IMG/VR virus record: IMGVR_UViG_3300037247_000927
Span: 1 to 58,829 of that record
Length of the DNA: 58,829 nt
Source of the DNA: a virus
Taxonomy: Duplodnaviria; Caudoviricetes
Strand: one strand, 5' to 3'
Shown here one piece after another: positions 6,718-55,917 of this stretch. Each line of letters opens with the position of its first letter. Positions within the stretch are counted from its first letter, which is position 1. The translations under genes and the position numbers were made by a program. A model generated the notes under the pieces. The model saw nothing but the letters and a program-made list of their open reading frames with translations, was not told the origin of the DNA and did not search any database.

Positions 6718-7153
6718 TACTCATACCTTCAAGCAGAGATAGAACTTCAGACATGGAACAACAAATATGATCAAACATTTTCACCATTAATTCTGGTTCG
6801 CCGTTCTCTAGTAAAAGTATTGTGGTTTTGCACTGTCCTGCCGCCCAACCCATTTCCATGCTGGCTGACCTTCCAAATGGCTGAACACCAACAAACACAT
6901 CTGCCCATAACATTGCGGAATAATCATGTTTATAACCTTGCATTGCAATAGGATGATCAAGACATTCCCGATAGCGCTCAATGCTCCATTCCTGCCATGC
7001 TGGATCAATATCCGACCAGTGAAAGCCGCTGTTGCCAGGCGCTGGATTGCGGAAGTCATATACTTCATGTCCCGCATTTCTCAGCTTACTAACTACTGAT
7101 GGCTGAATACTATTCCGCCAACTGGTAGCTACATATATTTTCTTAGTTGCCAT
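6707..7153 (-). CDS. Nucleoside 2-deoxyribosyltransferase-like (flavodoxin-fold) protein
   Basis: KIYVATSWRN...GHEVYDF...WADVFV...GRSASMEMGWA with the catalytic-position Glu retained. Confidence 0.75.
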   Translation of the reverse strand: MATKKIYVATSWRNSIQPSVVSKLRNAGHEVYDFRNPAPGNSGFHWSDIDPAWQEWSIERYRECLDHPIAMQGYKHDYSAMLWADVFVGVQPFGRSASMEMGWAAGQCKTTILLLENGEPELMVKMFDHICCSMSEVLSLLEGMSNGN

Positions 7154-7156
7154 GAC

Positions 7157-7492
7157 TTATCCCTTCCACGTTGGAATTGAAACTTTCTCACTCCACCATG
7201 CAGCAACCAAGTCCCAATCCTCATCATGTTTGGCGGTTCCGACAATGGAAAATGGATTGTCCGGCCCATCATCTTCAACAGTCAGCTTCATGAGGATCAC
7301 ATAATCACCATATGCATAGATCATCCCGCCACAATCATCCATTTCACTGTCGCCCATTATCACAACCCAATAGTGGCCGTTTTCTGTTGGTGGCGAGTCT
7401 TCTACATTAATCCATTCGCCCGCACCTTTTCTCATCACCAGTCCCTTCAACCAATTGAGTATGGATTTAATTCTTGGTAAATGATTATTCAT
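7157..7492 (-). CDS. DUF551-like protein
   Basis: EWINVEDSPP...VAAWW; likely start at 7492 after GGATAAGAG. Confidence 0.55.
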   Translation of the reverse strand: MNNHLPRIKSILNWLKGLVMRKGAGEWINVEDSPPTENGHYWVVIMGDSEMDDCGGMIYAYGDYVILMKLTVEDDGPDNPFSIVGTAKHDEDWDLVAAWWSEKVSIPTWKG

Positions 7493-7587
7493 TGCTCTCT
7501 TATCCATACGGTGTAATAATGTTTGAGTACAGTCTACTCTCTCAAATGATAATTGCAAGGGGTTTCGTGCAAAAAGTTGTTTTCTTA

Positions 7588-7785
7588 ATGCGGCTATGCG
7601 ACTTGAAGAAATATTATGTTTCGAACTCAAGCGCTGCGAGGCATGCCCAGGTACACAGGAACACTCTTTATATCGGGCCTGTCATTAAAGGACAGCAGTA
7701 TCTTCGAGAGAATTTGAGCCTGAGATTCGAGAAGCTGACGAATGGCAAGCTCAAGACACATACATTTATTCACCAAAAAGATTGA
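7588..7785 (+). CDS. Cro-like HTH regulator
   Basis: MRLCDLKKYYVSNSSAARHAQVHRNTLY...FEKLTNGKLK; divergent from the leftward block; nearby inverted repeat TTTGAG...CTCAAA (7522-7546). Confidence 0.7.
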   Translation: MRLCDLKKYYVSNSSAARHAQVHRNTLYIGPVIKGQQYLRENLSLRFEKLTNGKLKTHTFIHQKD

Positions 7786-7810
7786 CATCTGAATATTCAT
7801 CAGCGAGAAT
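7782..7810 (+). promoter_or_regulatory. Sigma70-type promoter for the candidate sRNA
   Basis: TTGACA-N17-GAGAAT. Confidence 0.65.
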
Positions 7811-7816
7811 GCGCTT

Positions 7817-7934
7817 GTGCTGAAGTCCTGCCGGATGGATACACAGTTGATGGATGTCCGCAAAGCCTCTTATCCGAGTTCAGTTTGCATTCGTCAACGA
7901 AGAAGGCCCTTGAGAAATCAGGGGCTTTTCTTTT
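7817..7934 (+). ncRNA. Candidate ~118-nt antisense sRNA
   Basis: Own promoter and terminator, no credible ORF; GCUGAA/UUCAGU stem; contains GCCUCUUAUCCGAGUUCA. Confidence 0.6.
7905..7934 (+). terminator. Rho-independent terminator
   Basis: GGCCCUUGA-GAAA-UCAGGGGCU followed by a U-rich tail; the G-U pairs form only on the + strand. Confidence 0.85.
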
Positions 7935-7959
7935 GCCTGCAACTTTATTTCAAAATCAT

Positions 7960-7989
7960 TTGACAAGCGATTCTGTTTTGTGCAAGACT
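7960..7989 (+). promoter_or_regulatory. Promoter of the rightward replication operon
   Basis: TTGACA-N18-AAGACT with extended -10 TGn. Confidence 0.5.
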
Positions 7990-8060
7990 GCAATTCGGGT
8001 TGCTGCTTATCCGTTACAACCGTTCGGCGGCAACACAACATTAATGAACTCGGATGCGTT

Positions 8061-8348
8061 ATGAAGAATCTCAAAATCATACCCTCCTTCCCACCTACGG
8101 CTGGGCTACGTTCGTTATTGTTAACCGACAAGCCGTATGAAGGGTTTCTTGCACAGCGGCAGTCCAAGAGCGATCTCGCACTATCAGAACTCCCAGAAGG
8201 CATACAAATGCATCTGGCTGCTCTCTGGTGTCTGATTTTCGGCAGCGATGCAAGACGGTCTTTACGGATCGAATGCCGACAACCCACAAGCGTAAACGAT
8301 GTGAGTCCTATGTATGGCGAAGGGTTCGAGAGCAAGCTAGCTTTCTAA
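8061..8348 (+). CDS. Possible leader ORF (may be non-coding structured RNA instead)
   Basis: ATG 5 nt after the sRNA-complementary site; no recognisable motif and no clear SD. Confidence 0.3.
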   Translation: MKNLKIIPSFPPTAGLRSLLLTDKPYEGFLAQRQSKSDLALSELPEGIQMHLAALWCLIFGSDARRSLRIECRQPTSVNDVSPMYGEGFESKLAF

Positions 8349-8456
8349 TTTTCTGTACTTCAGGTAATAGCTAGGACTTCTGATTGTCAGGAGCTTAGGT
8401 GAACTTTGCCTGATGACTCTGCTATTCAAGAGCAACCCTCTCTGGACCGCAGGGAC

Positions 8457-8520
8457 TATAAAGGTAATATAGATATATAACTATATAATATATAAGGTAA
8501 TAGTATGAAATACTATTTGC
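8457..8520. other. AT-rich tract with direct and inverted repeats; candidate replication origin
   Basis: Nearly pure A/T tract, AAGGTAATA twice, palindrome AATAGTAT-GAA-ATACTATT (8499-8517). Confidence 0.35.
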
Positions 8521-8542
8521 AAATTTTCATCAGGAGAATCAA

Positions 8543-9409
8543 ATGAAAAGACTCTGTATTTATCATGGTAATTGTGCTGATGGGTTTGCTGCTGCATACG
8601 CAATGCAGGTTGCATTTGATCCAAGCACTATTGAATTTCATGCTGGCGTTTACGGAGACGAACCACCAGATGTAACTAACCGCCATGTTTACCTTGTAGA
8701 TTTCTCTTACAAGCGTGATGTGCTAATTGAAATGGCAGCGAAGGCTGTGAGTATTTTGATTCTTGATCATCACCAAAGCGCTGAGGCTGAGCTTGTCGAT
8801 TTGCCAGGTAACGTCGAAACAGTATTTGATATGACCCGGAGTGGCGCAGTAATAACTTGGGATTATTTTCTGCCTGCCTTAAAAATACCGCCATTGTTTT
8901 TCCACATAATGGACCGTGACTTGTGGAGATTTAAGCTTCCGGCCACGCGAGAAATAATGGCATGTCTCAGCTCGTACCCTTATGACTTTGATGTTTGGTC
9001 CGACCTTATGGATTTCGATATGGAGTTTTTGCGTAGAGGTGGCGAATCAATCAATCGTAAGCAACTAAAAGATATTAACGAATTGATCGAGGCAAATGCG
9101 CACCGCATAGTCATTGCAGGCCATGACGTTCCCGGCCTGAACGGGCCTTACATGTGGGCTTCAGACGCTTGTCATATCATGGCCAAGGGTGAGCCGTTTG
9201 CTGCATGCTATTGCGATACAGGGGAGGGCAGAGTATTCCAGCTCCGTTCTGCTGATGGTGGCATGAATGTGGCTGAGATTGCAAAACTCTTTGGTGGTGG
9301 CGGCCATGAACATGCTGCTGGCTTCAGTGTGCCGCACCATACAGGTCTTATTTTTATTGAACCACCGATTGAATCAACAGAAATATTAGGAGAAACAAAT
9401 GTCACATAA
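8543..9409 (+). CDS. DHH/DHHA1 phosphoesterase (nanoRNase-like)
   Basis: YHGNCADG, VDFS, LDHH, DRDLW, GGGGHEHAAGF. Confidence 0.92.
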   Translation: MKRLCIYHGNCADGFAAAYAMQVAFDPSTIEFHAGVYGDEPPDVTNRHVYLVDFSYKRDVLIEMAAKAVSILILDHHQSAEAELVDLPGNVETVFDMTRSGAVITWDYFLPALKIPPLFFHIMDRDLWRFKLPATREIMACLSSYPYDFDVWSDLMDFDMEFLRRGGESINRKQLKDINELIEANAHRIVIAGHDVPGLNGPYMWASDACHIMAKGEPFAACYCDTGEGRVFQLRSADGGMNVAEIAKLFGGGGHEHAAGFSVPHHTGLIFIEPPIESTEILGETNVT

Positions 9410-13440: not shown

Positions 13441-13460
13441 AACAAAAACGGATAACAATA

Positions 13461-15275
13461 ATGAAGAACTTGACTGCGGCGGATATCGCCAAGGCGCTTG
13501 CTGAGAACGTAGAAACTGTTTGTAGATACTTACTCCCAAATGGTGTCCTGAAGGCCGGTGAATGGTGCGCGGGCGACCCTCATGGCTCAGCAGGAAATAG
13601 CTGTAAGGTCAGAGTAAGTGGATCGAAAGCCGGGGTATGGTCTGACTTCAATGGTGGACAGAGCGGTGACTTACTTGATCTTTGGTCGGCCAATAAGAAC
13701 ATAAGCATTGCTGAAGCCATGAAAGAAGCCAAGGCATACTTGGGTATTTCCGAACCTGAAACTTTTCATACCAAACCCAAGCTACAGTTTGCAAAACCAA
13801 AGAAACCAAAGAGTCTTGCAAAGCTGGGTTCAGTTTTATCCGACTGGTTTGCAAAGCGAAAGATAACACCTGAAACCCTGAAGATTTATCGTGTCGCTGA
13901 AGCTGGTGGTGCAATAGTTTATCAACACATCATAGATAATAAGCTTGTCAGCATCAGATACCGTAAGCTTCCAAAAGATTTCAGCAACTCAACCAACACA
14001 GCTCATACGTTGTGGGGGTGGCACACGCTCTCTGAGAGGTCTAGGAGTGTTGTAATCTGTGAGGGTTATGAGGATGCTATGTCATGGAGGGAATACGGCA
14101 TTGAGGCGCTCTCTGTACCGTTTGGTGCTGGTACTGGTAACAAGCACCAGTGGATTGATCACGACTATGAACGGCTACAGCAGTTTGATCGTATTTATAT
14201 CAGCATGGATATGGACGAAGCTGGCCTTGGGTGTGTTGAAGAGATAGCCACGCGCCTTGGGAATTACCGATGCTTTGTTGTTGAACTGCCAAAGAAAGAC
14301 TGCAATGACTGTTTGATTGCTGGTATTGCTAAAGATGTTATTGCGGATACGATTAAAAACGCCAAAGCTATTGACCCAAAGCATTTACGAAGAGCTGATT
14401 CATATCTTGATCAGACGATCAGATTATTTTTTCCGACCAGTGATTATGAGGCTGGATTTTCTCTACCCTGGTCGCATTCTGGCAACTTGATATTCAGACC
14501 GGGTGAGCTGATAGTCCACACTGGATTTAACGGGTCTGGAAAGTCTCAGTGGGTGAATTATCTGGAAATACTCATGATGAATGCTGGCTACAAGTGCGCT
14601 ACTGCTTCGATGGAATTTCAACCCAAGCGACTACTGCACAGGATGGTCAAGCAAATCACCGGCATAGGTACACCAACAGAGGCCTACATTAAAGAATCAT
14701 TTCAGTGGCTTGACGGTAAGTTTTGGTTGTTTGGTGCTACCGGAAACGATAAAGCCGGAAATCTTTTAGATACAATGCTTTATGCCAGAAAGAGGTACGG
14801 CGTTGAGGTTTTTATTATTGACAGCTTCATGAAGTGCGGGATCAATGAAGAAGATTATGACGGCCAAAAGAAATTTATGGATCAGCTTTCTGATTTCAAG
14901 AATGATTTCGAGTGTCAGATACATTTGGTTGTGCATCAACGCAAGCCTGCTAATGTGAATGAAGTCAAAGCAACTCCGAGCAAGTTTGGGATCAAGGGAT
15001 CAGGTTCAATATCTGATTTGCCGGATACAATTGTTCTGATTAATCGGAATAAGAAAAAAGAGTTTCAGGTTAATAAGATTCTCAGCAACAACAGAAGTAT
15101 GACCGGCATTGATATTCCCAAGGAATTAAAGAATATGCCTGATGTTTATGTTAACTGTGACAAGCAACGCAATGGAGACTGGGAAGGCGGCTTTGGTCTG
15201 CATTTTAATACTGGGAACTATCAATACAAACAATATTACAGAGAAAAAAATAGGGATTTTCTTCAGCATGGATAA
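13461..15275 (+). CDS. Primase-helicase (Toprim plus SF4 helicase, T7 gp4/Twinkle-like)
   Basis: ICEGYEDAMS, DMDEAG, KDCND; RPGEL...GFNGSGKS, IIDS, LVVH, IKGSGSI, KQRNG. Confidence 0.95.
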   Translation: MKNLTAADIAKALAENVETVCRYLLPNGVLKAGEWCAGDPHGSAGNSCKVRVSGSKAGVWSDFNGGQSGDLLDLWSANKNISIAEAMKEAKAYLGISEPETFHTKPKLQFAKPKKPKSLAKLGSVLSDWFAKRKITPETLKIYRVAEAGGAIVYQHIIDNKLVSIRYRKLPKDFSNSTNTAHTLWGWHTLSERSRSVVICEGYEDAMSWREYGIEALSVPFGAGTGNKHQWIDHDYERLQQFDRIYISMDMDEAGLGCVEEIATRLGNYRCFVVELPKKDCNDCLIAGIAKDVIADTIKNAKAIDPKHLRRADSYLDQTIRLFFPTSDYEAGFSLPWSHSGNLIFRPGELIVHTGFNGSGKSQWVNYLEILMMNAGYKCATASMEFQPKRLLHRMVKQITGIGTPTEAYIKESFQWLDGKFWLFGATGNDKAGNLLDTMLYARKRYGVEVFIIDSFMKCGINEEDYDGQKKFMDQLSDFKNDFECQIHLVVHQRKPANVNEVKATPSKFGIKGSGSISDLPDTIVLINRNKKKEFQVNKILSNNRSMTGIDIPKELKNMPDVYVNCDKQRNGDWEGGFGLHFNTGNYQYKQYYREKNRDFLQHG

Positions 15276-16293: not shown

Positions 16294-16343
16294 TCCAACT
16301 ATCCGGTAAAATCGGACAGTTCAATTATTAAACATCAGTCATG

Positions 16344-16377
16344 AAAAAAGGCCGGAGACTTTTGCCCCGGCCTTTTT
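16344..16377. terminator. Bidirectional intrinsic terminator between convergent operons
   Basis: AAAAAA-GGCCGG...CCGGCC-TTTTT. Confidence 0.9.
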
Positions 16378-16409
16378 CTATTCTTTACCTGGTTCTACAG
16401 GTTATTTTC

Positions 16410-19763: not shown

Positions 19764-22094
19764 CTATTCCCTGTCAATAATTACCAACTTTGATGCGGTA
19801 CCGGTCCCGCTCTGCTTGAATGAGTCTTCCGGAAGGTCGATTACTTCACCACCAACAGAATCAAACCAGTTTCTAAACTCAACTGCCTTTTTATCCTGTC
19901 TGAAAAATGGGCCGGGACTCATAATAGAAACCATCCGGCCACCTATTTTCAAGAATGAATAAGCAAGGCAAACATGCGTAATGTCTTGTAGGTTTTCAAA
20001 TGGTGGATTCATCACAATGCGGTCAAACTTAAAGCTGTTGAATTGCTCTGTGAAATCAACCGGTCTTGCGTCATAACCTTTTGCCTGGAGAATTTCACAC
20101 AATGAATGATTGATTTCATAGACCACGATCAGATTATCCATGTCCAGGGCCTCGATACCGTCAACAATTGCACCGCTTCCGGCTGAAGGTTCGAGCACGC
20201 TTTGCCCTGTTGTAATGTCGGCATAGTCAAGCATCAGATCAACAACGGGTTTTGGTGTCGGGAAGTATCCCGGTATTTTGTTGAAGCGTAGAGCCTCAGT
20301 CATTCGATCAAGATTTTCCTTGTGTTGCAGTTTTTCATCTTTGCCGGAAAGAATGTCCCACAACGCCAGGGCTTTTGGTGACGCGCTTTCGTGAGGCTTG
20401 CCGGTCCCGATTGAATATTGATGCCAGCCATTAGGGACAGATTCGAAACCTTCACCAAGCAAATCATAGACAGCCTTTTTAGACTTCAATCCGGCTAATA
20501 TTTCCGGCACTGTTCCTGCTTCGTGTAGATCGGCCAAAGCATTCAAAGCTTGTTGTGTTCTTTCCAGCTTGTCAGCTTCCGAGCGTGCGCTGGCGGCTTC
20601 TTTTTGCCGCTTTGGTGTGTTGGTCAGCCTGTCGCCTCGTTTGTTATCTATGGCGCTCTGAAGTTTGTCTGACATCTTGCGGAATCGCTCAGGTAATCCG
20701 GCTGGCGGTGTTGGTGGTGGTGGTTCATTATCAGGCGGACCCGTAAAGGATCGGGCTTGATCTTCAGATTTAAACGCAAAGCCTCCAGGAGTTTGGCCCC
20801 ACTTGCGAGAATACCAGCCGCCGTTATCTTTGGCGCGGTCTCTTTCGCTAGTGAATTCATCACGCTCCAACCTTGACAGCGGAACACATATAAAGAAGTC
20901 ATAACCGCGTTTTTCGTGGTAATGCTGCTCGATTGTGTAGCCGTGTGCGCTTGGTTTGGTGTTGGTGGTAGGTGTTGACCGTTCGACGCGCTCAGGAACG
21001 CACCAGCGGCCAACAGGGACGGACTTCGCACCGTGATACAGTTCAATTTTGTTAATTGACCAGCCGCTAGAGTCTCTGTGCCCATCTTTCAGATAATAAC
21101 CAGCACCAAAGCTGTATTTTTCGCGGTGTTCAATCTTTGATTCTTCAATCTTCCAATAAAACGGGATCAAGGTATCGTCAAACTTGATTGAGTAAGGTGC
21201 ATTTTTGCCATCAATCCATGCCTTCCCCTCGACTGGATCGGGATCACCTTTTTTATCAATCCATGCTTGTGCTTGGCCCGTCGTGGTAAAGTCTTTGCAT
21301 TCTGGTAATAAATCGGAATGCCACACTGAACCGCATCCTTTATGATAATAACTTCCATTGCTATGGAAATCTTCACCGATCATTACACGCGGAGTAAAGC
21401 AACCTTTGCCGGGTCCAAGGTGTTCCGTCTCAGGTGCATTTAATGCAGCCTTGCGCATTTCTGGGAATAGATCGCGGGTATGTGTTGACCATGCCAGAAT
21501 TAAAACTTCTTTGGTTGTGTGGCCGTGGTAATCGGTCATGATATCGGAATCATTAACATGCAATTCCGCCACAATTACAGCTTTAGCGCCTGGTGGCATT
21601 TTTTCCGTGGCCACTGCTTCAAATTCTGATCGGATTTGATCGGATTTGATACGCGCATTCTCGCGGGTTATTGCTTCCTTTTGGTGATGCTCTACCATCT
21701 GGACCACTAAAACCTTCATTTCCGCCATTGTCTTACTTGGTTTTAATTCATATTTCTGCGTCCAGGGTAAAACGATTTGTTCTGATAAATCTATAGATCG
21801 CGTGTTGTCTTCGTAAATGACATCAATGCTTTTATTGATCTTTTCCATTCCGGCACCGAGCATGTAGACATTGCCGGAAGACTCATTAACTGCGGATATC
21901 CAGCCGTTTTTATCGTACATGCTCCGGACTGGCTGACCAATATAAAAGCCTTCGCGGGTTTGTGTGTGGCTGTTCCAGTCATGCCCACATTTTGAACATT
22001 CTCTGATCAGTACCGTTTCAGGGCTAAATTGTTCATGCCCGCATTCAGGGCATTGATAAGCGTTAAAAAGTGCGTTTTGTGCTGTCTGATTCAT
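19764..22094 (-). CDS. Multidomain (polyvalent-type) protein with C-terminal amino-methyltransferase
   Basis: N-terminal CPEC..CSKC; YFPTP, VLEPSAGSGAI, IVMNPPF, SFKQSGT. Confidence 0.88.
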   Translation of the reverse strand: MNQTAQNALFNAYQCPECGHEQFSPETVLIRECSKCGHDWNSHTQTREGFYIGQPVRSMYDKNGWISAVNESSGNVYMLGAGMEKINKSIDVIYEDNTRSIDLSEQIVLPWTQKYELKPSKTMAEMKVLVVQMVEHHQKEAITRENARIKSDQIRSEFEAVATEKMPPGAKAVIVAELHVNDSDIMTDYHGHTTKEVLILAWSTHTRDLFPEMRKAALNAPETEHLGPGKGCFTPRVMIGEDFHSNGSYYHKGCGSVWHSDLLPECKDFTTTGQAQAWIDKKGDPDPVEGKAWIDGKNAPYSIKFDDTLIPFYWKIEESKIEHREKYSFGAGYYLKDGHRDSSGWSINKIELYHGAKSVPVGRWCVPERVERSTPTTNTKPSAHGYTIEQHYHEKRGYDFFICVPLSRLERDEFTSERDRAKDNGGWYSRKWGQTPGGFAFKSEDQARSFTGPPDNEPPPPTPPAGLPERFRKMSDKLQSAIDNKRGDRLTNTPKRQKEAASARSEADKLERTQQALNALADLHEAGTVPEILAGLKSKKAVYDLLGEGFESVPNGWHQYSIGTGKPHESASPKALALWDILSGKDEKLQHKENLDRMTEALRFNKIPGYFPTPKPVVDLMLDYADITTGQSVLEPSAGSGAIVDGIEALDMDNLIVVYEINHSLCEILQAKGYDARPVDFTEQFNSFKFDRIVMNPPFENLQDITHVCLAYSFLKIGGRMVSIMSPGPFFRQDKKAVEFRNWFDSVGGEVIDLPEDSFKQSGTGTASKLVIIDRE

Positions 22095-22620: not shown

Positions 22621-22851
22621 TTATCCGTTAATATTGTCGTTTAAATTTTTTAAGCAGCCCGTTATATCGGACCTAAAACAAAAACTTGTCGAGATACTCG
22701 ATATAGGGTGGCCTTTTATGTTTATCACTGAACCGTTAATTGATTTTATTTTGTGCCAGTAGCTATAGCCATCATCATCTTCAAGATAATACTTTTTATC
22801 TTTGGTCATGATGTGGCCTTTTTCTATTAAAATATCCTTTTCTGTGTACAT
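22621..22851 (-). CDS. Hypothetical early protein
   Basis: GGATGAGAGG RBS 8 nt upstream. Confidence 0.7.
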   Translation of the reverse strand: MYTEKDILIEKGHIMTKDKKYYLEDDDGYSYWHKIKSINGSVINIKGHPISSISTSFCFRSDITGCLKNLNDNING

Positions 22852-22873
22852 CTTAAATGCCTCTCATCCGTTT

Positions 22874-55479: not shown

Positions 55480-55917
55480 TCATATTATACCAATACCGTC
55501 AAGGTGGTCGATCTCATGTTGAACAATCCTGGCCAGCAAGCCGCGTATCTTTATCCGCTTTGGGGTGCCATCAATTGCCAGCCATGAAACGACAATAATC
55601 TTATAGCGCTCAACAGATACCAGCTTTCCAGGGAATGACAAGCAACCTTCAGATTCAATGTTGGTCCCGCCACGAAACTTTTCTATGACGGGGTTTACCA
55701 TAGCTTCTTTGAAGCCAGCGTAATTAACTACGATTAATCTTTTTGGTATACCGACTTGATTGGCAGCAAGACCAACTGCAATTTTTTCTTCTGATGGGTT
55801 CTGGTGAGCATAGAGCATGCGGAACATAGCGTCAGAAATGCTATTTACGTCAGAAACATTAACAGGCAGAACAAACGGATCACAAATAGTTTTTAAGAAC
55901 TGGGAGTTAAGCTGCAT
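55480..55917 (-). CDS. def: Peptide deformylase
   Basis: VGLAANQVG, EGCLS, QHEIDHLDG. Confidence 0.95.
   Translation of the reverse strand: MQLNSQFLKTICDPFVLPVNVSDVNSISDAMFRMLYAHQNPSEEKIAVGLAANQVGIPKRLIVVNYAGFKEAMVNPVIEKFRGGTNIESEGCLSFPGKLVSVERYKIIVVSWLAIDGTPKRIKIRGLLARIVQHEIDHLDGIGII

Follow-up and report, generated by a model that had tools for sequence, protein, structure and literature searches.

The window, by which is meant the whole stretch of DNA that was analyzed, comprises 58,829 nucleotides and coincides with the complete record of a virus (58,829 bp, with direct terminal repeats of 127 bp). The virus is an uncultured phage from marine sediment. One public DNA run matches the record; this run is a marine sediment metagenome, probably the source sample, with no RNA run listed. 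Variants of the window were sought in that one DNA run, and only the source contig was recovered. Genes are read leftward from about position 7500 and rightward from about position 8060; the complementary pair of sequences that is the subject of this study therefore sits in a divergent control region. The products of the rightward block are a DHH phosphoesterase, an SbcC-like AAA ATPase, a topoisomerase-like protein, a replication-initiator-like protein, a primase/helicase, and a Holliday-junction resolvase. Given this list, the name “replication operon” that had been applied to these genes in a preliminary description of the locus is fair. The first well-supported gene of the operon is that of the DHH phosphoesterase (8543–9409, plus strand; Shine-Dalgarno (SD) sequence AGGAG). 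Just 5′ of it, positions 8455–8505 are AT-rich and contain repeated AAGGTAATA / AGGTAATAG; this segment might act as a promoter region or as an origin of replication. The first leftward gene (minus strand) has two in-frame starts, ATG 7507 in the source annotation and ATG 7492 in the call made on another assembly. The phage is apparently non-temperate; no integrase, repressor or repressor-like protein was found among 30 window proteins (a part of the proteome) that were scanned against PHROGs. The window contains no tRNA or tmRNA.

A candidate small RNA (sRNA) is encoded on the plus strand of the control region. Its putative promoter, P1 (7782–7810), is of the sigma-70 type, with TTGACA and GAGAAT hexamers separated by 17 nt (10 of 12 matches). 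The intrinsic terminator (7902–7935) features a 12-pair stem, a 4-nt loop and a T run, and it looks strong. With the 5′ end placed according to the −10 box and the 3′ end according to the terminator, the predicted RNA occupies 7817–7935 and is about 120 nt long. Promoter-like sites in the interval 7000–9000 numbered four, and the mean for shuffled sequences was 4.0; P1 thus gains credibility only when taken together with the terminator and the fold. The RNA 7817–7936 was predicted to fold with a minimum free energy (MFE) of −44.4 kcal/mol (z = −3.74), and none of 200 shuffled sequences was as stable. No supported plus-strand gene was found 5′ of the terminator, either before or inside the promoter–terminator unit. 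Thus, the combination by which a trans-encoded sRNA is recognized (a promoter, an intrinsic terminator and a stable fold) is present here by prediction, and the sRNA is a credible candidate that is well supported by all three elements; its ends are predicted. The 48-codon ORF at 7817–7960 was considered as a peptide gene and rejected on its coding score of −0.25 (on this scale, true genes score 0.28 ± 0.09 with a 5th percentile of 0.147, and the 95th percentile of wrong frames is −0.105).

The second stem-loop of the sRNA (7846–7898) carries the apical region on a 12-bp stem (7846–7857 / 7887–7898). Within this region lies the 17-nt sequence CCTCTTATCCGAGTTCA (7866–7882), which reads CCUCUUAUCCGAGUUCA in its RNA form. 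Its first 10 nt (7866–7875) are complementary to the GGATAAGAGG boxes described below, and positions 7872–7882 are complementary to the leader of the rightward operon. In the predicted fold, the hexaloop TTATCC (UUAUCC in the RNA, 7870–7875) is open, with probabilities of being unpaired of 0.99–1.00; positions 7876–7880, which make up half of the segment complementary to the leader, are held in a weak upper stem (0.00–0.20). In the 5′ part of the sRNA, positions 7831–7841 (CCGGATGGATA) resemble the start region of the first leftward gene at 10 of 11 positions, and the GGAU motifs there could pair with the sRNA’s own loop.

The loop matches a set of SD boxes of the phage. The sequence GGATAAGAGG, the complement of 7866–7875, occurs six times in the window, always on the minus strand. 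Five of the copies are located 6–8 nt before the ATG of a leftward gene (24660, 24398, 22626, 22112 and 6155, all minus strand); at 22626, the match amounts to 11 nt if the preceding C is counted. The sixth copy is the opposite strand of the sRNA, and no start codon is suitably spaced from it; a minus-strand gene initiated from this copy at 7875 was rejected, as its sole start would be a TTG 2 nt away and its coding score was −0.09. Boxes with one mismatch precede the first leftward gene (GGATAAGAGA, at 7505) and the gene at 22851 (GGATGAGAGG, at 22869). The former box stands 3 nt before ATG 7492 and overlaps ATG 7507 (minus strand). The flanks of the GGATAAGAGG boxes are unlike one another, and the SD box is therefore a motif, not a repeated cassette. 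Complementarity of at least 9 nt to the apical segment 7858–7886 was found in 7 of 92 start regions, as compared to an expectation of about 0.35, and that of ATG 8061 was joint longest at 11 nt. GGATAA was the commonest hexamer within 22 nt upstream of starts (12 of 88 predicted starts). Judged from these matches, it is credible that the sRNA is an anti-Shine-Dalgarno RNA, and this character is the main reason for taking the match in the leader seriously. The leader site shares the AUCC nucleation point with the register used for the SD boxes and extends along the loop in the opposite direction. In front of the primase/helicase gene, CGGATAA stands 5 nt from the start codon (ATG 13461; 13450–13463); this 7-nt match to the sRNA loop is possibly a second link between the sRNA and the replication genes.

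The preliminary description had placed the leader of the rightward operon downstream of a second promoter. Such a promoter, P2 (putative, 7960–7989, plus strand), could be assigned using a rule that we relaxed to a perfect −35 box, a TG, and three of six matches in the −10 hexamer; it did not appear in the standard promoter scan. It, too, is sigma-70-like and consists of TTGACA, an 18-nt spacer and TG-c-AAGACT, i.e. an extended −10 element with only three of the six hexamer positions matched. The 8-bp hairpin that had been noted at the head of the leader is real (7999–8034; arms GTTGCTGC at 7999–8006 and GCGGCAAC at 8027–8034), one of its pairs being U–G (8004/8029). So is the second anti-GGAUAA sequence that had been noted in its loop: the 20-nt loop (8007–8026) begins with TTATCCGTT and holds UUAUCC. 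The 8-mer CTTATCCG at 8006–8013 is identical to sRNA positions 7869–7876 and has three plus-strand copies (7869, 8006 and 22620), the last being the complement of a minus-strand SD box. In shuffled leaders, TTATCC fell within the loop positions in 0.19% of cases. As a whole, the leader (7996–8075) folds in an ordinary manner (z = +0.39; 120 of 200 shuffles folded equally well). The terminator scan found no terminator-like site in 7996–8061, so the attenuation that had been suggested as one form of the switch has no basis by the classical mechanism. The ratio of C to G over 8022–8100, calculated as a check for Rho loading, was only modest (1.4–1.8) and was not used.

The proposed target of the sRNA is an ORF of 95 codons (8061–8348, plus strand) whose status as a gene is unproven. 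A search for homologues among 1.84 billion representatives returned none, comparisons to Pfam and PHROG yielded no family match, and an Atlas search gave no usable match. The ORF is not a called protein in the protein collection, in which neighboring genes of the same record are present. Its coding score (−0.017) exceeds those of the other five frames at this place and falls between those of true genes and wrong frames. Judged from its sequence, ORF 8061 might represent an orphan leader ORF; alternatively, it might not be translated. The target side, i.e. P2, the leader fold and ORF 8061, is the weak part of the case.

The complementarity itself proved exact to the base. Positions 7872–7882 (the left arm, ATCCGAGTTCA, in the apical region of the sRNA) are the exact reverse complement of positions 8045–8055 (the right arm, TGAACTCGGAT). 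Both arms lie on the plus strand with a separation of 162 nt, and neither 11-mer has a second copy in the window. Positions 8056–8063 read GCGTTATG; the right arm therefore stops 5 nt short of ATG 8061, and it covers the likely SD of that start (GGAU, 8052–8055). A U–G pair (7871/8056) lengthens the duplex to 12 bp. The complementarity is thus in the right position relative to an SD and a start codon, but ORF 8061 is unsupported as a gene.

The chance level of this match depends on what is held fixed. Genome-wide, inverted repeats of 11 nt with a spacing of 20–300 nt were found in 9 rows (8 places), and 5.84 ± 3.16 were expected from 100 Markov-1 simulated genomes; considered in this way, the repeat is not unusual. 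With both regions fixed beforehand, a chance origin is very unlikely: in 20,000 dinucleotide shuffles of the leader (7996–8063), an 11-nt complementarity to the apical 29 nt (7858–7886) never arose, and the best value, 10 nt, was reached in 14 of them. For a random 28-nt window, the probability of an 11-nt match was 0.0011, so that about 0.1 would be expected over the 92 start regions. We take the real significance to lie between the genome-wide and the fixed-region figures. The sRNA was defined by independent features, and its target is the start region that comes next downstream. Owing to the dominance of long bulged duplexes, a raw genome scan with duplexfold did not rank the 8045 site among its top 30 windows.

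Coincidence is the main rival explanation. It holds that the sRNA is real and acts on the GGAUAAGAGG boxes or elsewhere, the 11-nt match being a product of chance beside a chance ATG. The genome-wide count of repeats speaks for it, as do further matches of 10 and 11 nt to the sRNA region, which sit in coding sequence (20785, 6613, 15572 and 57708), the want of support for ORF 8061 as a gene and the ordinary leader fold; moreover, 5 of the 11 nt (CGGAU) are already accounted for by the usual GGAU-type SD of the phage. These points must be set against the shuffled leaders, none of which reached 11 nt, and the low probability per start region. The match also joins the apical region of the sRNA to the start region that comes next downstream, and the same leader contains, 32 nt upstream of the right arm, a second anti-GGAUAA 8-mer. 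On balance, coincidence is on the unlikely side, although it must be weighed seriously.

A second alternative operates at the level of DNA: the arms and the TTATCC(G) copies might be an operator pair or an origin element that is recognized by a DNA-binding protein. The inverted repeat is perfect, the DnaA box has a core similar to TTATCC, and the AT-rich repeat block at 8455–8505 adjoins the replication genes. The arms, however, are situated some 50–60 nt downstream of the predicted transcription starts and not over −35 or −10 boxes, the 11-mer has no further copies, and the PHROGs scan of 30 window proteins revealed no repressor-like protein. Further, the complementarity to the SD boxes is explained by a reading in terms of RNA and not by one in terms of DNA. 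We regard a DNA-level site as very improbable.

The reading that we prefer is that the sRNA prevents translation from starting at ATG 8061, and its energetics were evaluated by modeling. The hybrid energy of sRNA and leader was −16.2 kcal/mol for the 11-bp duplex and −17.2 kcal/mol for 12 bp with the U–G pair included. Opening 7872–7882 in the sRNA costs 4.5 kcal/mol. Opening 8045–8055 costs 1.6 kcal/mol in a nascent leader that ends at 8070, and 9.6 kcal/mol once 8108–8120 has been made, because that segment, about 60 nt downstream, is predicted to pair with 8040–8050. The net pairing energy accordingly ranges from about −10 kcal/mol (leader ending at 8070) to about −2 kcal/mol (longer leader). 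For the six SD-box sites that were compared, the net values were −3.9 to −9.8 kcal/mol, and the leader site in its longer context was the weakest of the eight sites compared. When leader and sRNA were folded together, the contact anticipated in the preliminary description was predicted for a leader cut at 8075, in which the 11 pairs had P = 0.56–0.64, and was improbable for one cut at 8120 (0.09). The MFE of the cofold favors another contact over the 11-bp duplex. The two-strand program understates the duplex, because a loop-to-strand contact requires opening of the stem in that program. According to these models, pairing between sRNA and leader is feasible, would be best on the nascent leader, and is not compelling.

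In the mechanism that we propose, P1 (7782) and the terminator at 7902–7935 would delimit an RNA of about 120 nt that displays CCUCUUAUCCGAGUUCA on its second stem-loop. The 5′ register of the loop (7866–7875) would serve as an anti-SD against the leftward genes’ GGAUAAGAGG boxes, and the 3′ register (7872–7882) would pair with UGAACUCGGAU at 8045–8055 in a leader made from P2 (7960). Pairing would begin at the open hexaloop (AUCC with GGAU) and spread into the weak upper stem, and the resulting duplex would exclude the 30S subunit from ORF 8061. With the leader ORF untranslated, expression of the replication genes downstream might be lowered by polarity. The sequences, the predicted fold and the complementarity have been shown; we infer both promoters, the ends of the RNAs, their pairing in vivo, the block to translation and, above all, the polarity step. 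To the reading that the sRNA blocks initiation at ATG 8061, we assign a probability of roughly 40%; the element would then be an sRNA that covers the start of a neighboring operon. The interpretation given in the preliminary description is partly supported.

The same pairing could have a different consequence, in which the leader made from P2 is a decoy that titrates the sRNA through 8045–8055, such that rightward transcription relieves the leftward GGAUAAGAGG genes. Because the two registers overlap by 4–5 nt (7872–7875 are shared), the targets would compete for one loop, and if ORF 8061 is no gene, the site falls within about 550 nt of untranslated leader (5′ UTR) ahead of the DHH gene. A decoy with the lowest predicted net affinity of the eight sites would be a poor one, however, and we consider this arrangement improbable.

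It may also be that the two arms meet within one molecule. In such a cis element, an RNA that starts at P1 and reads through the terminator would pair both arms and thereby hide the ribosome-binding site (RBS), and only transcripts started at P2 would be translated. One strand does carry both arms, at a distance of 162 nt, and a promoter, about 120 nt and a terminator just ahead of an operon constitute a leader–terminator layout. The PR′–tR′ unit of lambda, with its short terminated RNA and its read-through product, is a parallel. The MFE structure of the read-through RNA (7817–8075), on the other hand, retains stem-loop 2 and lacks the long-range helix, the terminator, with 12 pairs and a U run, looks strong, and no antiterminator was noticed. 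A cis element is about as improbable as the decoy.

Most of the interest of the element rests on the possibility that its loop has two registers. Specifically, a single 17-nt loop would present two overlapping registers, CCUCUUAUCC to the GGAUAAGAGG boxes and AUCCGAGUUCA to the replication leader; the divergent gene sets would be coupled by competition for the shared AUCC, and the UUAUCCG loop of the leader would be a second, weaker anti-SD. This full scheme is unlikely. Were it true, the phage would encode an RNA governor of its own translation, an RNA counterpart of RegB/RegA of T4. If the pairing with the leader does occur, two jobs fall to a stand-alone sRNA in this orphan and apparently non-temperate phage: the replication operon would be throttled, as would, via the overlapping register, the genes that are marked by a private 10-nt SD box. 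A testable model for the RNA-based timing of phage gene expression would then be at hand. If the match is a matter of chance, it adds nothing beyond the sRNA itself. In the relevant part of a published account (PMC12197685), trans regulation of a phage’s own genes is described for only a few phage sRNAs; c4 of P1/P7 is the classic case.

The preliminary description had likened the element to C4/icd and had suggested a search of the C4 family, which we take to be RF01695 in Rfam. That membership was not borne out. No Rfam family matched at its gathering score in the whole window, and no match to C4 was found at E ≤ 10 in 7300–8500. At that threshold, the interval yielded only three weak matches, none of them to C4; the best, ctRNA_p42d (RF00489), reached 22.4 bits, short of its gathering score of 50, and aligned with the terminator hairpin (7901–7936) only.

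The likeness to C4 is instead one of logic. In P1 and P7, the direct target of c4 is the small leader ORF icd, and transcription into ant stops if icd is left untranslated; c4 is cut from the same transcript as its targets and has no promoter–terminator unit of its own. In the parts of two accounts that treat it, c4 is a trans-acting small RNA, the loop sequences of which pair around the RBS of a downstream message and block its translation (PMC12197685, PMC8546580), and the title of a reference in the latter gives it as an antisense RNA of 77 bases that arises by processing. As in c4 (immI of P1/P7), the arm in the present sRNA is found in an apical loop region and its target is 5 nt before an ATG; in the proposed logic, ORF 8061 and the replication genes would take the places of icd and ant. 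Unlike c4, the sRNA has its own predicted promoter (7782) and terminator (7902–7935), and the target has its own putative promoter, P2. Pfam and PHROG comparisons showed no homologue of icd or ant, and the genes downstream code for a DHH protein, an SbcC-like ATPase and a primase/helicase, not for an antirepressor; they serve replication, and no immunity system is evident. The sRNA may work as C4/icd does but is not a member of the C4 family, and a C4/icd-like block to translation, the other form of switch that had been suggested, is plausible.

Other small RNAs and regulators resemble the element in part. The sar RNA of P22 and its target are transcribed from opposite strands, and sar is complementary to the target over its full length. 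A brief treatment of sar describes a small phage RNA that pairs at the start region of the neighboring ant and blocks initiation (PMC12197685). Here, in contrast, the plus strand carries both elements, which are separated by 162 nt and have only 11 nt in common, and the sRNA lacks the opposite-strand overlap with its target that is typical of cis-antisense RNAs such as P22 sar and lambda OOP. For the register directed at the SD boxes, the nearest functional analogy is RegB of T4, an endoribonuclease that, as summarized in an excerpt of PMC3014915, inactivates many of the phage’s own early messages at a common SD-type motif. RegB is a protein nuclease that cuts GGAG, whereas in the present case an RNA would pair with GGAUAAGAGG and, through a second register, with the leader. 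Among cellular RNAs, the type exemplified by RsaE/RoxS shares several features with the phage sRNA. These bacterial sRNAs direct an unpaired, pyrimidine-rich loop against SDs, have several targets and end in an intrinsic terminator. All of these features recur in the phage candidate, i.e. a pyrimidine-rich loop complementary to SDs, several potential targets and an intrinsic terminator; RsaE/RoxS-type RNAs, however, are cellular and conserved and use generic C-rich motifs, as opposed to the phage-specific 10-nt box and the unique 11-nt site beside the phage’s own gene.

As judged by sequence comparison, the phage is an orphan. Its closest relatives share 41–43% identity in the AAA ATPase and 41% in the portal protein. 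A blastn search of GenBank phages with 7400–8600 produced no match, and scans of IMG/VR with the DHH protein, the AAA ATPase, the portal protein, alignment A1 and a 19-mer of the sRNA located no relative with this region. No metagenome contig was found with alignment A1. The 17-mer of the loop had 19 matches in metagenome contigs, none of which had blastn similarity to the window (E ≤ 1e-3); by eye, their flanks were also unlike. Among species genomes, alignment A1 gave one match of 32%, in a Phycisphaerales MAG, without synteny. Eighty IMG/VR loci found with an alignment of AAA ATPase homologues had only the ATPase in common with the window, and each other window protein matched at most one of those loci. 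Vibrio phage H20 was considered as a relative (its DHH protein is 49% identical) and was set aside because it is not syntenic. Homologues of the first leftward gene are 56–71% identical and reside on contigs of 944, 1273 and 877 bp.

Several features elsewhere in the window were recorded. Between the convergent rightward and leftward blocks, a GC-rich hairpin with flanking A and T runs (about 16343–16380) was seen by eye and looks like a two-way terminator. A 776-aa protein with a methyltransferase-like C-terminal part is encoded at 19764–22094, and a peptide deformylase-like gene is present at 55480–55917 (both minus strand). Finally, a perfect sigma-70 consensus (TTGACA and TATAAT separated by 16 nt; 24716–24684, minus strand) heads the leftward block that begins with the small SD-box genes.
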